From Octopus vulgaris (lineage: Eukaryota), in assembly GCA_951406725.2 (NCBI GenBank), contig OX597829.1, positions 14,508,001-14,572,000 on the forward strand: a stretch of 64,000 nt of DNA, read 5' to 3'. The translations under genes were made by a program, and so were the position numbers. The number at the start of each line of letters is the position of its first letter. Position 1 is the stretch's first letter. Below are positions 3,474 through 59,720 of this stretch, one piece after another. The notes under the pieces were generated by a model. It saw nothing but the letters and a program-made list of their open reading frames with translations. It was not told where the DNA came from and did no database searches.

Positions 3474-3830
3474 GGCGGTGAGCTGGCAGAAACGTTAGTA
3501 CGCTGGTCGAAATACTTAGCTGTATTTCGTTTGTCTTTACTTTCTGAGTTCAAATTCCGCCGAGGTCGACTTTGCCTTTCATCCTTTCGGGGTCGATTAA
3601 ATAAGTACCAGTTCCGCACTGGTGTCGATATTATCGACTTAATCCGTTTGTCTGTCCTTGTTTGTCCTCTCTGTGTTTAGGTATTTCGTCTGCCGTTACG
3701 TTCTGAGTTCGAATACCGCCGAGGTCGACTTTGCCTTTCATCCTTTCGGGGTCGATAAATTAAGTACCTGTTACGCACTGGGGTCGTTGTAATCGACTTA
3801 ATCTTTTTGTCTGTCCTTGATTGTCCCCTC
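3474..3830 (+). mobile_element. tRNA-derived SINE, family C (Meta-domain-like), head plus tandem second body
   Basis: GGCGGTGAGCTGGCAGAAACGTTAG head, GAGTTCAAATTCC B box, GCCTTTCATCCTTTCGGGGTCGAT central domain present twice. Confidence 0.88.
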
Positions 3831-3834
3831 TCTC

Positions 3835-6921: not shown

Positions 6922-6963
<42 letters not shown>

Positions 6964-6964
6964 G

Positions 6965-7640
6965 TTAAGGTATGTAGAAAAATACAACATGGACAAGAAC
7001 GTATAACTCTTAGAAGACGACACAATAAACACGGACAGGACATTCGAAACCCTCAGTCTTCAGTCAAGAACCGGATCATCGTAGTAATTTCGGCTGATTA
7101 ATCTTGAGATTACTAGATCACGGCCAGCCCTCCAAGAAAAACCAAGCAACAAGCATTAGAAAAACTAAGCTGGAAGCGTAGATTTCCTGGAAGAAGGATC
7201 GAATGCATACGAACACCAGGACAGCAAAAGGGACAGATATAAAAAAACAAAAAACAATAATGGAATACAGAAACATGAAATACAGAAGCATTAACGGTGA
7301 AAACAACAGTGTCTTACGACTGATAACAAGCAAACAAATTTTTTCTCTGGCGCAATGGAAAAAGCCTTTATAGTGGCGGACGAAAACAGCGATGTTAACA
7401 AGACAAGGGTCAGAAGCTGAAAGGCAGATTTCGGCCAACAGTCACGTGACAGAGAAGAGGGAAAAGAAAAGAAAGGGAAGCAAAGGAAGAGAGAGAGAGA
7501 GGGAGAGAGAGAGAGGAGGGACAAACGCAACAAAGAGAGAGAAGAGAGAGAAAGAAGGAATCAGAGAGGAGAAGGGATGGGTGTCGAAGAATGACCTGTG
7601 AGTGCAGAGCGAGACAAAGAAATAGGAGGGTAGTGGAAGA
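6965..7640 (-). mobile_element. Non-coding retroelement 3' end (PLE-like) carrying a permuted hammerhead
   Basis: Unique-looking segment between (TA)n tracts; on the minus strand a pyrimidine-rich tract precedes the ribozyme fold. PLE assignment is inference, no ORF present. Confidence 0.5.
7041..7205 (-). ncRNA. Non-circularly permuted hammerhead ribozyme fold (copy A)
   Basis: Stem II GGCTG/CAGCC then GAA; stem III TAGTAAT/ATTACTA; C17 at 7108; stem I TCAAGA/TCTTGA then CTGAAGA; extra stems CCG-GATC/GATC-CGG and CATTCGA/TCGAATG. Confidence 0.8.
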
Positions 7641-7778
7641 CTAGACCAAAGAATCAGAGGAAAGAGAAGAGAAAAAGAGGATGAGTAGAGAGAAAAGAGA
7701 GAGAGAGGGGGACAGATCAAGTAAAAATGAGAGAGAGAGAGAGACAAACAGAGAGTCGTACCAATTATTAAGAATATA

Positions 7779-14629: not shown

Positions 14630-14634
<5 letters not shown>

Positions 14635-15340
14635 AATGAAAAATATGCATATATATAAACATATATGTACGTACCTACCTCTACATGTACATATACACGC
14701 ATATATGTGTACAGGACACCAAAAAGACGTCGAACACATAGAGAGACGAAAAACATAGACACAAACCAAGGAACAAGACAGGCAAAAAAAGGAGAGATAC
14801 AGGACAATAAGCACAACGAAAAATCCCCTTCTTCAGTCGCTAAAGTTTCATCTACTAAACGTTTCGAAGGATAAAAGCGAGACGTATACTTCGAATGAAA
14901 AATTCCTTCCTGCGAAAAGCAAATCAATTAAAATTCTGAGATCTTTTCGCAGAGGGGTAAAAAAAAGCAAGACGGTAACGACAGTACAAACATATAAACA
15001 GTAAAAAATATATATATAAACAGTGGAAAAATAAATATATAACAGTGAGAGACAGGACAAGGAGAACAAGATAAGAAGGGCTGTTAACGCCAGACGAAAA
15101 AAGTATTGCAAACGCTGGATTATAGTGGACGACGAGAGAGGAAGATGTCGACCAGTGGCCTTAGAAGGCGGGCGAGAAAGGACAGGATAGCAGTTACGAC
15201 GGAAGTACCGTCGCAGATGGACGACGGGAATGGGGGAGGAGGAGCAAGAGGAAGAGAGAGAAGAAGGGGAATGGTGCGAGGAGACCATGAAGAACAGTGA
15301 GGGGGAGAGAGATATATATATAAATATATTTATACTTATA
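14630..15340 (-). mobile_element. Non-coding retroelement 3' end (PLE-like) carrying a permuted hammerhead
   Basis: Same layout as 6965-7640: pyrimidine tract, ribozyme fold, TGTCCTGT motif, then (TA)n. Confidence 0.5.
14825..14957 (-). ncRNA. Non-circularly permuted hammerhead ribozyme fold (copy B)
   Basis: CCCCT/AGGGG; 10-bp hairpin CTGCGAAAAG/CTTTTCGCAG; stem II GAAGGA/TCCTTC-GAA; stem III ACGT/ACGT; GUC site (C at 14881); stem I TCGCT/AGCGA-CTGAAGA; extra TTTCAT/ATGAAA. Confidence 0.85.
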
Positions 15341-17924: not shown

Positions 17925-19745
17925 TAGCACAAAGCCTGCAATATTATAGTGTATGTGTGCGTGCGTATGTGTGTGCGTGTGTGCGTGTGTGTGTGTGTGT
18001 GTGTGAGGTTTAGTCGATTACATCGACCACAATACTTGACTGGTATTTATTTGATATATCCAGCAATGATGAAAGGCAAAGTTGATCTTGGTAGAATATG
18101 AACTGAGAACGTAAAGAACCAGAAGAAAGGCCACTTTTAAATGGCTCCAGATTTGGCGCAAGGCCAGTAATTTCAGGGGTTGAGGTAAATCAAATTATAT
18201 CGAACCCAGTGTGTAACTGGTACTAATTCCATAGAGCTCGAAATGATGAAAGGTAACGTCAAACTCGGCGGCATTTGAACTCAGAACGTAAAGATGGATG
18301 GAATGCCGCTAAGCATTTTTTCCCGGTGCTTTAACGATTTCTATAAGCTCACCGCCTTAACAACAACAGCAATAATTATTATTCTTTTTACTACTGACAA
18401 GGAGTCTCAGATTTTGTGGGTAGGGTCTAATCGAATATATCATTTTATCGACCCTGGAAGGATGAAAGGTAAAGCCGACTTCGGCAGAATTTGAACTGAG
18501 AACGTAAATAGCCGGAAGAAATGACGCTGTTTTGTTCAAAAGCTTTCACGAACCCTAGGATTCATAAAGCATGTTATGCGGATTCCATGGAGTATAAGTG
18601 ACCGAGATCATGGCATTTTCCCTGAACGGATGCTGGTCCGTTACAAAGTTCAAGACAAACAATTTGAAGGAAAGGAACCAGGTCGATTACATCAATCCCA
18701 AGTGCTAAGCTGCTCCTTTATTTTATCAACCCCGAAAAGATGAAAGACAAACTTGACCTTGGCAGAATTTGAACTCAGAACGTTAGGAGTTTGAAGAAAT
18801 CATGCTCAGCATTTTCTCCGACGCTCTAACGATACTGTCAGCTCTCCGCACCTCGTTGTTAATAATTTCTTTTTTCTATAGGCACAAGGCCAGGAATTTT
18901 GAGGGGGAGGGCAAGTCGATCATTTTCATCCCAGGGCTCAATTAGTACTTATTTTAACAACCCAGATTGAATGGAAGGCGGAGTCAAACTCGAGGGAATA
19001 TAAAGACCGACGAAATGTTATAAAGTATTTTGTACAACGTGCTTACAAGTCTACTAGCATGTTGCCTCTAATATAAAATAATAATTCTTTTCTCCTCTAG
19101 GCACAAGGCCCGAAATTTTTTTTTTTTGGGGGGGGGCAGTCGATTAGATCGACCCCAGTTCGCAACAGGTTCTTAATTTATTGACCCCGAAAGGACCACG
19201 GCGGAATTTGAACTCAGAGCATAAAGACAGATGACATACCGGAAATACCTATTTCTTTAATACCCACGAGGGGCTAAACACAGAGAGGACAAACAAGGAC
19301 AGACAAACGGATTAAGTCGATTATATCGACCCCTGTGCGTAACTGGTACTTATTTAATCGACCCCGAAAGGATGAAAGGCAAAGTCGACCTCCGCGGAAT
19401 TTGAACTCAGAACGTAAAGATAGACGAAATACCTATTTTTTTACTACCCACAAGGGCTAAACACAGAGAGGACGAACAAGGACAGAGAAACGGATTAAGT
19501 CGATTATATCGACCCCAGTGCGTAACTGGTACTTATTTAATCGACCCCGAAAGGATGAAAGACAAAGTCGACCTCGGCGGAATTTGAACTCAGTACGTAA
19601 CAGCAGACAAAATACCTATTTCTTTACTACCCACAAGGGGCTAAACACAGAGAGGACAAACAAGAACAGACGAACGGATTAAGTCGATTATATCGACCCC
19701 AGTGCGTAACTGGTACTTAATTTATCGACCCCGAAAGGATGAAAG
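17925..19745 (-). mobile_element. Cluster of co-oriented family C (Meta-like) SINEs; young tandem array of about 184-bp units at 19242-19745
   Basis: GATGAAAGGCAAAG..GAC...GG..GAATTTGAACTCAG recurs at about 18070, 18245, 18460, 18740, 18970, 19200, 19371, 19554; AAATACCTAT junction near 19242, 19426, 19609. Confidence 0.9.
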
Positions 19746-19839
19746 AATTTTTGTTGAGCATGAGTATTATATATTTAGCGCATTCGGGTAGCATTGTACA
19801 TTTAGCTATTATATAAAATGTGTATGTAGTTGTTGGTGT

Positions 19840-40209: not shown

Positions 40210-40255
40210 GAGACCTGAAGAAGGCTGGAGTGTATATCAGCCGAAACGTTGTGTT
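40210..40255 (+). ncRNA. Minimal type I hammerhead (one stem I mismatch)
   Basis: GAGAC-CTGAAGA-A-GGCTG(GAGTGTATAT)CAGCC-GAA-ACGT-T-GTGTT. Confidence 0.78.
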
Positions 40256-52801: not shown

Positions 52802-53225
52802 GGCGGCGAGCGGGCAGAACTGTTAGCACGCCGGGTGAAATGCTTAGCGGTATTTCGTCTGCCGTTACTTTCTGAGTTCAAATTCCGCCGAGGTCAACAT
52901 TACCTTTCATCCTTTCGGGATCGATTAAATAAGTACCAGTTACGCACTGAGGTCGATGTAATCGACTTAATCCGTTTGTCTGTCCTTGTTTGTCCCCTCT
53001 GTGTTTAGCCCCTTGTGGGTAGTAAAGAAATAGGTATTTCGTCTGTTGCTACGTTCTGAGTTCAAACTCCGCCGAGGTCAACATTGTCTTTCATACTTTC
53101 TGGGTCGATTAAATTTAATACCAGTTATGCGCTGGGGTCGATATAATGGACTTAATCCGTTTGTCTGTCCTTGTTTGTCCCCTCTTTGTCTGGCCCCTTG
53201 TAGGCAGTAAAAAATAAGAAATAAG
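52802..53225 (+). mobile_element. Family C SINE, head plus tandem second body
   Basis: GGCGGCGAGCGGGCAGAA head; junction AAAGAAATAGGTATTTCGTCTG at 53024-53045. Confidence 0.9.
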
Positions 53226-54813: not shown

Positions 54814-54879
<66 letters not shown>

Positions 54880-54933
54880 CACATATATATACATATATAT
54901 ATACATATATATATATTTGTATATATATATATA

Positions 54934-56109
54934 ACGGGAAGCTTTATGAAAATAGACAAAAGACGAAGGCAGGTGGAAAACAAACAAACAATTGTATTAG
55001 TATGGCGCTCAGGAAATATAAATAAAACAAGTCTTTAACGTTTCGAGCCTACGCTCTTCAACAGAAAGATACACAGAGAGAAAAAAAACACAGAAAGGAG
55101 AGAAAAAAATGCGTGCAGTAACTAACGAATCAACATGGCGATCTGATTTCGGCCAGAAGTCAAAGATCAAACATGAGACGCGAGAGCGAAATAAGGGGAG
55201 ATAATAGGGTTGATAATAGGGTTGAATGACCACCTATTAGTGCGTAGGAGGGGTCTGGACGTGTGTATGTATAGGGTTGGTGTATGTATTAGTATGTATT
55301 AGTATGTATAAGGGTGTGTGTGTGTGTGTATGTATGAGAGAGTATTAGTGCGTAGGATAGGTCTGGACAGGCGTATGTGTGGGGTTGGTGTAAGTATTAG
55401 TATGTATTAGTACGTATTAGTATGTATAAGTGTGTGTGTGTGTGTGTATGAGAGAGTATAAGTGCGTATGAGGGGTCTGGACGTGTGTATGTATAGGGTT
55501 GGTGTATGTATTAGTATGTATTAGTATGTATTAGTACGTTTTAGTATGTATTAGTTGGTGTATGTATTAGTATGGCACATCATATATGATGTGATGTGTA
55601 AAGTCGTGTGGTGTAGTGAGGAGAAGAGGGGGAGGGGAGGAGATGGGGGAGAAGGGGAGGGGAAGAAGAGGGGGGAGAGGGGGAAGAGGAGAGGAGAGGA
55701 GGAGGAAGGGGAGGAGTAAGGGGAGGAGGAGGGGGAGGAGGAAAAGAGGGGGAGGGGGAGAGAATGGGAGGGGGGAGCAGAGGGAAGGGGAAGAGGGAAG
55801 GAGGGAGGGAGAAAGAGGGAAGAAGGGAAGGGGAGTAGGGGTGAAAGGATGAAGGACTGAAGAGAAGTAGGGGTCGGGGGGAAGGATAGGTGAGGAGGGG
55901 GAGAGGGGTTAGATGAGGAGGGGGAGAGTTGAGACCAAATGGCGTATAAGAGCGAAGAGAGAAGATTAATTCCTGTTCACGGCGCAAACGGGAATCCGGA
56001 TGGCCTCTGTGTAAGGACAAACCGAACACAGATAGGTGTTGCAAGGAGTGACCGGTGGATCGGAAATGGCGTGAGACCGGTGTGTCGTTCGCAAGGTGGA
56101 TGTCACGAA

Positions 56110-57660: not shown

Positions 57661-58048
57661 ATATATGAAATTAAATACTACACTCTTTTGTTTTCAAACT
57701 ATCGTTCATATATGAACGCACGAATGCCCCTGAAACACAAGCAACGAAAAAAAAACGACATTTGAACTCTGATCTCCCATGTATGTCTATCTGTCTGTCT
57801 CTCTTCCTCTTTTTCTCTCTCTTGTTGCCCACATGTAACCATCGTCCATCTTTCTTTTCCTCACATGGGCATCTTTCTTTTCCTGCACTATGTTCTAAAG
57901 ACTGGACTTCTCTTCCTTTCTCTTTCTCTTTTCTCTTTTCAAAGAAAATATTTCTCCCAGCGTTCACTATTTTCCTCTCGTTCTGTTTGTTTTTGTTCGG
58001 TTTCCATATTTGTTTTTGTTCGGTTTCTCTGTTTTTGTTCCCAACTTT

Positions 58049-58171
58049 GACCCTCTAGAAATCCAGAATTTTATTTTGGAATTTATGGGAGCAACTGTCT
58101 TCGAACATTCATATTGTCGTTGAATGCTCGAAATGAGGAATAGATAGACAGCCGACAACTGATGAAGGGTC
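58049..58171 (+). ncRNA. Non-circularly permuted hammerhead ribozyme fold (copy C)
   Basis: GACCCT/AGGGTC; hairpin; stem II GAGCA/TGCTC-GAA; stem III TTCAT/ATGAG; A17 at 58113; stem I TTGTCG/CGACAA-CTGATGA; extra CTGTCT/AGACAG. Confidence 0.85.
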
Positions 58172-58281
58172 GTTCTCTGTGTTACCTGTCCTGTTTTCCA
58201 TTTTTTCTCTTGTTTGCGCATTTAACTCGTTTGTTATCGTACTTCATGTTGTTTACTGTTGGTGACATTCTGTACCCATGT

Positions 58282-58325
<44 letters not shown>

Positions 58326-58766: not shown

Positions 58767-59337
58767 GTATGTATGTATGTATGTATGTTTGTGTCTATCT
58801 ATCTATCATTTCATTTCATTAGTTTCGTCTATTTTTCAATACTTGACCTTCACCCCACTGATCCTTATTTCGTTGCCGAGTAAAGGATAGCACATTTACA
58901 CCCACATACGCATACACACATATACACATATGTATATATATGCACAAGCATTAATGTATATATAACTATGCGTGTAAATGTAGGAGTCTATATATATATA
59001 TACAGATAGGTAGATAGATATGCAACCCTATAGCCCAGGGCTAATCAGAGCTTTGTGAGTGGATTTAGTAGATGTAAAGTCAAAGAAGCCTGCCGTTTAA
59101 ACACCTGCATGTGAGTCTTTGTGCCTGCTTTTTTTCTCTACCACTCCGGAATTAGCGGTTCGGCAAAGGACACCGATAGAAGAAATACCAGATTCAAAGA
59201 ATAAGTAGAAGTGCAAATTCGTTTAAATAAAACGTCTGTATTACATGGTTGCAGTCTAGGGTGGAAGATGTCTTGCAAACAACTTGCACATGCAAGTGCT
59301 ATCAGTCAAAAATCCCGCATACCGGAGGCCGGAAGCC

Positions 59338-59443
59338 AGCAAGTGTATGGGGTCATCAGGAGAGAATGCGCGCCGTTTCGGGGCCTACTTCTCGACGGCA
59401 TCAATATGCACCGCCCCTTCACTGATATGAGGCCCCGCTTGCT
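59338..59443 (-). ncRNA. Non-circularly permuted hammerhead ribozyme fold (copy D) in LINE 3' UTR
   Basis: Stem II GGGGCCT/AGGCCCC-GAA; stem III TGCCGT/ACGGCG; GUC site (C at 59394); stem I GAGA/TCTC-CTGATGA; closing AGCAAG/CTTGCT. Confidence 0.78.
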
Positions 59444-59468
59444 AGATCAGCTGGTTATCAAATAAAGC

Positions 59469-59720
59469 TCAATATCCTTCTAGCCATCGCTCATCGTCTC
59501 TTTTGAACCAAATCCAGTGGCTAGCCTTCTCCACTGTAGTTTGGATATCGGTTATGGTGGTATTGACTTTACGATGAGTTAGGCCTAACGATAACAACAG
59601 TCGTCTCACACTGTGTCCAACGAACCCTCTACATCCGACTTCGATTGGAAAAAAAGCGTCTTCATATTCCTCGAGGTGGTTTACATAACGGTCAATCTTT
59701 CGAGCCCGAGTGGCGTCCAT
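59469..59720 (-). pseudogene. C-terminal restriction-like endonuclease fragment of a HERO-like non-LTR retrotransposon (5'-truncated)
   Basis: RKIDRY...FPIEVGCRGFVGHS.RRLL..LG...EKASHWIWFKRDDERW matches the K..KY/P.EVGCRGF/AS.W.W.KR pattern of HERO-clade elements. Confidence 0.8.

Follow-up and report, generated by a model that had tools for sequence, protein, structure and literature searches.

Copy C, a repeat in the 64,000-nucleotide stretch of Octopus vulgaris DNA analysed here (the window), is probably an aged, non-coding retroelement copy carrying a hammerhead ribozyme with a displaced stem II, which would cut 3' of A58113. Tandem transcripts of such repeats would be cut once per unit, re-joined and copied by a Penelope-like enzyme. 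The strands of copy C follow one another 5' to 3' over 58049-58171 as P0, hairpin, stem II, P4, stem III, A58113, stem I, stem II, GAAA, stem III, P4, stem I, CUGAUGA and P0 (Table 1). The elements of a hammerhead core (CUGANGA, GAAA and a NUH site) are all present. The NUH site is an AUA triplet (58111-13), and the cut is predicted after its last base. Stem III (58108-12/58133-37) forms 5/5 pairs, one of them U-G, and stem I (58114-19/58153-58) forms 6/6. An earlier note, drawn up from the letters of the sequence, had read this segment as a permuted hammerhead with a six-helix plan. Pairs were recounted from the sequence, and the six helices and the core all lie where they had been placed. 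The reading and the plan hold. The genome contains five families that conform to them, and inspection by eye adds Naiad elements of other phyla.

Table 1. Features of copy C and of the other copies of the plan, in window positions
Feature	Position	Strand	Remarks
Family A copy	6958..7777	-	Young, tandem-array family; putative ribozyme 7205-7041; H17 at 7108
Family B copy	14631..15312	-	Young, apparent sister of C; putative ribozyme 14957-14825; H17 at 14881
Family C repeat copy	57786..58279	+	5'-truncated, non-coding, pyrimidine-rich; carries the fixed 3' end of the family
P0, 5' strand	58049..58054	+	Partner 58166-58171; 6/6 pairs
Hairpin between P0 and stem II	58055..58088	+	Unpaired linker absent; base 7/8, one G-A
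Stem II, 5' strand	58089..58093	+	G10.1 = 58089; partner 58125-29; 5/5 pairs; 70 nt upstream of CUGAUGA
P4, 5' strand	58095..58100	+	Partner 58146-51; 6/6 pairs; ties stems I and II, equivalent to the 'I' helix of types SGC and CSG
Block S	58108..58119	+	Stem III strand 58108-12; H17 = A58113; stem I strand 58114-19
Block G	58125..58137	+	Stem II strand 58125-29; GAAA 58130-33; stem III strand 58133-37
P4, 3' strand	58146..58151	+	Pairs with 58095-100
Split block C	58153..58171	+	Stem I strand 58153-58; CUGAUGA 58159-65; P0 3' strand 58166-71
TGTCCTGT after the core of copy C	58187..58194	+	Common to B by descent
Microsatellite, (CA)n then (TA)n	58283..58312	.	At the 3' end of the element
Copy D, fourth window copy	59336..59445	-	Partly decayed; H17 at 59394; immediately 3' of the C-terminal end of an ORF from an RT element

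Copy C is old and truncated at its 5' end, and it departs from its family in six private differences. Its core is exact, and an intact core is found in 19/25 aligned rows of family C. The base of its hairpin is weakened by private changes at 58056 and 58058. The private changes favour a rival hairpin; in the predicted fold the strands of stems II and III are taken up by this hairpin, and stem III has a probability of 0.05. Judged from its sequence, copy C itself may be a poor cleaver, the two possibilities being about evenly balanced.

Pairing across families and controls against chance

The plan was found, built from different base pairs, in five families of the octopus genome, designated A, B, C, N and D. 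Pairing was tallied over the first five pairs of each helix in eight hand-segmented representatives of these families, three further copies being left out. Standard pairs occupied 39/40 cells in stem I, 40/40 in stem II, 38/39 in stem III, 37/40 in P4, 29/34 in P0 and 33/35 in the hairpin, fractions which the hand-picking of segments inflates, with the registers of stems I and III fixed by the core. Two to six pair types occurred at most helix positions. The sole pairs that never changed were G10.1-C11.1 and U16.1-A15.1, which place stems I, II and III in the core register in 8/8 representatives. Within family C, 94.7% of the helix cells are paired, and covariation did not exceed that of shuffles (one two-sided change, with 459 of 500 shuffles as high). 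Such an absence is expected because copies decay after insertion, yet it lends the structure no support.

Chance complementarity in a repeat-rich genome could have been read as a hammerhead. CTGATGA is no commoner than expected (7 vs 9.5), and isolated copy C RNA folds no better than its shuffles (z = -0.69, with a folding program that does not handle pseudoknots). A loose descriptor gave three matches in 600 kb of random genome sequence, one of which looks spurious, versus three in 1.8 Mb of control sequence. Single-strand folding is uninformative for the core, because stems I and II cross the other helices and are beyond the reach of the program. Against a chance origin stand the different pairs by which the plan is formed in five families and in other phyla, and two further descriptor controls. 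A three-helix descriptor, requiring stems I, II and III in this order, matched the window four times (A, B, C and D) versus three times in 60 Markov-1 copies of the window. A strict six-helix descriptor matched once in 9.6 Mb of control sequence; among the four window copies it passes copy A only, C failing at its weakened hairpin base. The structure of copy C is, by these controls, more than chance. Cross-family pairing appears largely to refute chance complementarity, which is considered very improbable. The 600 kb of random genome also held six family matches of at least 50 nt and no new families carrying the plan.

Families A, B and C as mobile repeats

The genome searched comprises 2.8 Gb in 227 contigs. 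Family C gave 3317 first-look candidates, the best 40 others being 90-93% identical to copy C; a 31-mer of this family has 453 exact matches, and a 28-mer of family B has 428. Identity between copies is 99-100% within families A and B, which are arranged in head-to-tail arrays with units of 835-860 nt; the unit of C measures at least about 620 nt. The output listed contained no real ORF in the units of A, B or C.

C had been described in the earlier note as a sequence independent of B. This does not stand, as the two units align over their whole length, with local scores of 134 and 149 against shuffle maxima of 89 and 96. When 25 rows of family C were used to build a covariance model, it found B (33.4 bits) and an older B (37.5 bits). 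B and C thus appear to be diverged sister families, and their differing pairs would therefore be compensatory changes. No homology of unit A to B or C was detected (scores of 121 and 83 against shuffle maxima of 131 and 122).

The presence of TGTCCTGT after the cores of A, B and C, noted before, was confirmed. The microsatellite said to come next lies about 70-170 nt further on; it marks where the element, at its fixed 3' end, was inserted into (TA)n/(CA)n. The motif is found at most 45 nt from the core in 19/30 C copies (26/30 with one mismatch), 25/25 B copies and 25/25 A copies, and in D (0/15) and N (0/30) it is missing. The idea of a shared, general downstream signal was rejected on this conservation count across families. 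Older A-type copies have a different sequence in its place, and it recurs elsewhere in the B and C units. These units also have in common an AAGTAAG motif near their start, resembling a splice donor and followed by a pyrimidine-rich tract (three C loci and one B locus).

The anatomy of family C insertions was surveyed at 30 loci, taken in chromosome order. Their 3' ends are mostly fixed and run into (TA)n or (CA)n, the 5' ends vary, and an inverted piece was flagged at 7/30 loci. The family thus combines the (TA)n target, fixed 3' end and inverted 5' copies of Naiad-type insertions, and the same anatomy is described for Penelope-like insertions in the accessible text of PMC8557442. A following unit was present at only 3/30 loci. 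As many as 24/30 insertions start upstream of the predicted cut site, so most templates were uncut or re-joined. In 7/30 the 5' end is placed from -11 to +23 relative to the site, with one coinciding with it; as a hint this is weak, and the search pattern biases it.

In the proposed mechanism, P0 would stack on the abutting hairpin, A9 and G10.1 meeting at the nick within one continuous helix, and this stacking would allow the usual hammerhead core to form, with P4 holding stems I and II together. Tandem transcripts would be cut once per unit. By virtue of the topology, both cut ends would be kept together through stems II, III, P4 and P0, and the monomer could be re-joined into a circle. A Penelope-like RT/endonuclease may then copy the circle into (TA)n sites, as in non-LTR retrozymes. 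Ends that stay paired should favour re-ligation, which would fit templates spanning the site; such templates fit a slow or inactive ribozyme equally.

The plan might instead be a real conserved structure with little or no cleavage, namely a 3' RNA element bound by the RT or protecting the transcript, whose core serves as a folded scaffold. It lies about 100-250 nt from a fixed 3' end in all five families, a position at which a cut would detach the end copied first; in addition, most insertions span the site, and minimal Penelope hammerheads cleave poorly in vitro (PMC4209133). However, it is precisely the catalytic bases (CUGANGA, GAAA, NUH and G10.1-C11.1) that stay constant while the helices vary, and the 5' ends on and near the site also argue, weakly, for a cut. 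The non-cleaving element is judged unlikely, and a cutting ribozyme is preferred.

A search of 16 stretches around RT matches yielded no autonomous partner for A, B or C. A young Penelope-like family has intact frames of 900-1200 aa elsewhere in the genome, with RT and a weak C-terminal GIY-YIG domain; a fragment of it lies in the window at 54874-56109 (-). Its intact members carry, instead of the split-block plan, an ordinary minimal hammerhead with a UUGAAGA core. It was rejected as the partner of A, B or C, since this hammerhead is of minimal type I and there is no link to these families; as a helper for A and B it is a candidate. Two contigs starting at 14881, the predicted cut of B, were explained by a variant 30 nt off at 14911 and discarded. 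Contigs from four runs covering part of B contained no ends at the predicted cut. One contig set over family B bears template-switch adapter ends, lying away from the predicted cut, and its library is therefore cDNA.

Other hammerheads and repeats occur in the neighbourhood. Minimal type I hammerheads at 40215 (+) and 40046 (-) form an inverted pair around an (ATA)n tract, with an additional A inserted between A9 and G10.1. De la Pena and Flores reportedly found in 2001 that a viroid hammerhead tolerates a single extra base at the A9/G10.1 position. Two other loci of the genome hold hammerheads of canonical order with a long stem II, in one case as an inverted pair. Tandem copies (159-185 nt) of a common short repeat, which we take to be SINE-like, are found at 3522-3831, 19243-19746 and 52849-53216 of the window.

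Reverse transcriptase elements that carry the plan

Copy D, overlooked in the earlier note and with 2305 candidates in the genome, sits in the 3' UTR of an RT element that has no relation to Penelope. The end of the ORF that precedes it lies at about 59480-59700 (-). Relatives of this ORF are RT proteins reaching about 1180 aa in length, and a Pfam search with the ORF end returned no family. The element is presumably of the HERO type, with a restriction-like endonuclease. The literature searched contained no report of HERO and a hammerhead jointly.

Naiad elements are described as being without canonical hammerheads, eight of them, the octopus one included, being marked 'HHR_half_core' in the accessible part of Craig et al. 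(2021; PMC8557442). The last 400 nt or so of 51 published Naiad consensus sequences were judged by eye, nothing being computed. The full split-block plan was seen in 6/51 of these ends (Amil, Aacu, Anas, EuTe, Obim and Ovul). Judging by the sequence names, corals and crustaceans are presumably among the bearers. The plan was also recognised by eye in the ctenophore Naiad Bfor, whose stem I is short. Five nematode ends (three Nbra, Hcon and Hpol) resemble plain CSG, a type of which the accessible text of Eckert 2023 (PMC10085705) gives two metagenomic sequences only, and the spider Naiad Smim appears to have the S-G-C order. The remaining ends displayed no plan to the eye within the same stretch of about 400 nt.

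The genome contains 218 exact matches to a short motif taken from the published end of the octopus Naiad. The motif of family N lies downstream, on the same strand, in 14/30 loci found with a Naiad-like RT. A fragment upstream of it matches RVT_1 (E = 1.3e-5, below the curated cut-off), and homologs of this fragment have an N-terminal GIY-YIG domain. In family C loci a Naiad-type ORF (N-terminal GIY-YIG plus RT) is absent, and no sequence link between family C and Naiad was found beyond the ribozyme plan. It is likely, as far as sequence can tell, that the plan is the 3' ribozyme of many autonomous Naiad elements and the candidate cutter they had been missing. Naiad may have seemed ribozyme-free because standard descriptors cannot see this block order. 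Naiad elements dominate many invertebrate genomes, and the plan offers a testable answer to their apparent lack of a ribozyme.

Comparison with known hammerheads, Naiad and retrozymes

The hammerhead was split by Eckert et al. (2023; PMC10085705), in the part of the paper available, into blocks C, G and S, which were assumed to be unbreakable. That study describes SGC and CSG forms from nature, in which a helix connects stems I and II, and gives cleavage rates of 0.004-0.19 per min in vitro. Between A9 and G10.1 the known alignments of that study have one or two inserted bases at most, and in the accessible text of Perreault 2011 (PMC3088659) core insertions are likewise of one or two bases only. 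In the literature searched, the term 'type-SGC' occurs in Eckert 2023 only, whose accessible text places no such RNA in genomes of known organisms, bar one GCS candidate.

The blocks of copy C run in the order S, G, C (58108-19, 58125-37 and 58153-65), and P4 joins the free strands of stems I and II. This order is that of the non-circular SGC class of Eckert 2023 with one departure, the 5' strand of stem II having moved to the front. Block C is consequently not continuous, with no stem II strand right after CUGANGA; the bases there pair with the P0 strand, and the partner for stem II is found 62-79 nt upstream. No unpaired base separates P0, hairpin and stem II strand in C, B, D, N or an older A copy; copy A has two such bases. 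The displaced strand is tied back to A9 via P0 and the hairpin, and a block that Eckert took as unbreakable is thereby broken. The octopus plan is otherwise like type SGC (HRIMA-1; PMC10085705, as far as its accessible text goes) in block order, full core, the P4-like helix on the other strands of stems I and II and the short linker leading from stem I to the stem II strand.

An ordinary type-SGC hammerhead has also to be weighed, in which stem II would be formed by the bases right after CUGANGA with one bulged A, leaving P0 and the upstream strand as an alternative, perhaps inhibitory fold. A weak stem of four to five pairs can be drawn after a one-base bulge in C (-2.2 kcal/mol) and B (-4.5 kcal/mol), and the canonical hammerheads at 40215 and 40046 have their bulged A at the same place. 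In A, D and N, however, a stem of this kind containing G10.1-C11.1 is absent, and the upstream strand pairs with the strand preceding GAAA more strongly than the bases after CUGANGA in 7/7 cases and covaries across families. An ordinary SGC fold is thus improbable, and the upstream strand is taken as the partner in stem II.

Type CSG, as given in the accessible part of PMC10085705, resembles the plan in its circular block order, with the 5' strand of stem II followed by the helix between stems I and II and then by the site. Its block C is whole and comes first, whereas in the octopus the CUGANGA half stands last. An Rfam search with copy C yielded 0 matches at the gathering score, and the circular C-G-S order of types I, II and III is not that of copy C. 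Within the literature searched (titles and abstracts, with few subscription journals), no precedent was found for two helices between A9 and G10.1, and neither the split-block form nor permuted hammerheads in animal retroelements were described. If the reading is true, non-circularly permuted hammerheads, known until now from unnamed metatranscriptomes, are present in many copies in animal genomes, and the rule that CUGANGA stands directly before stem II is broken.

A broader proposal is advanced tentatively, with the balance lying slightly against it. The plan would add a seventh topology to those of the hammerhead, in which the catalytic block is opened from within and a stacked pair of helices closes it again. 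It would represent an ancient ribozyme of Naiad elements from corals to crustaceans and octopus, perhaps also ctenophores, and would have spread to an unrelated RT element as well as to thousands of retrozyme-like repeats. The products would stay paired through four helices, and monomers could thus join themselves into circles without a host ligase.

The octopus repeats share with Naiad Penelope-like elements (PMC8557442, in its accessible text) the (TA)n targets, partial tandems and inverted 5' copies, family N being the octopus Naiad 3' end itself. That text reports no canonical hammerhead for Naiad and draws no structure.

For non-LTR retrozymes, cutting, re-joining and copying by a Penelope-like enzyme have been proposed (Cervera and de la Pena 2020, PMC7229834; Li et al. 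2026, preprint 10.64898/2026.07.22.740005). Going by the accessible parts of these two sources, they and the octopus repeats are alike in being non-coding head-to-tail repeats with one hammerhead per unit, present as monomers and short arrays and likely moved by Penelope-like elements. The arrays of families A and B consist of such non-coding tandem units with one putative hammerhead each. These young, near-identical families would offer ready substrates for studying how Penelope-type elements process and circularise RNA. The known retrozymes, in the same accessible text, have type I hammerheads and units mostly of 150-450 bp, whereas the plan of A, B and C is not of type I; their putative hammerhead is non-circularly permuted.
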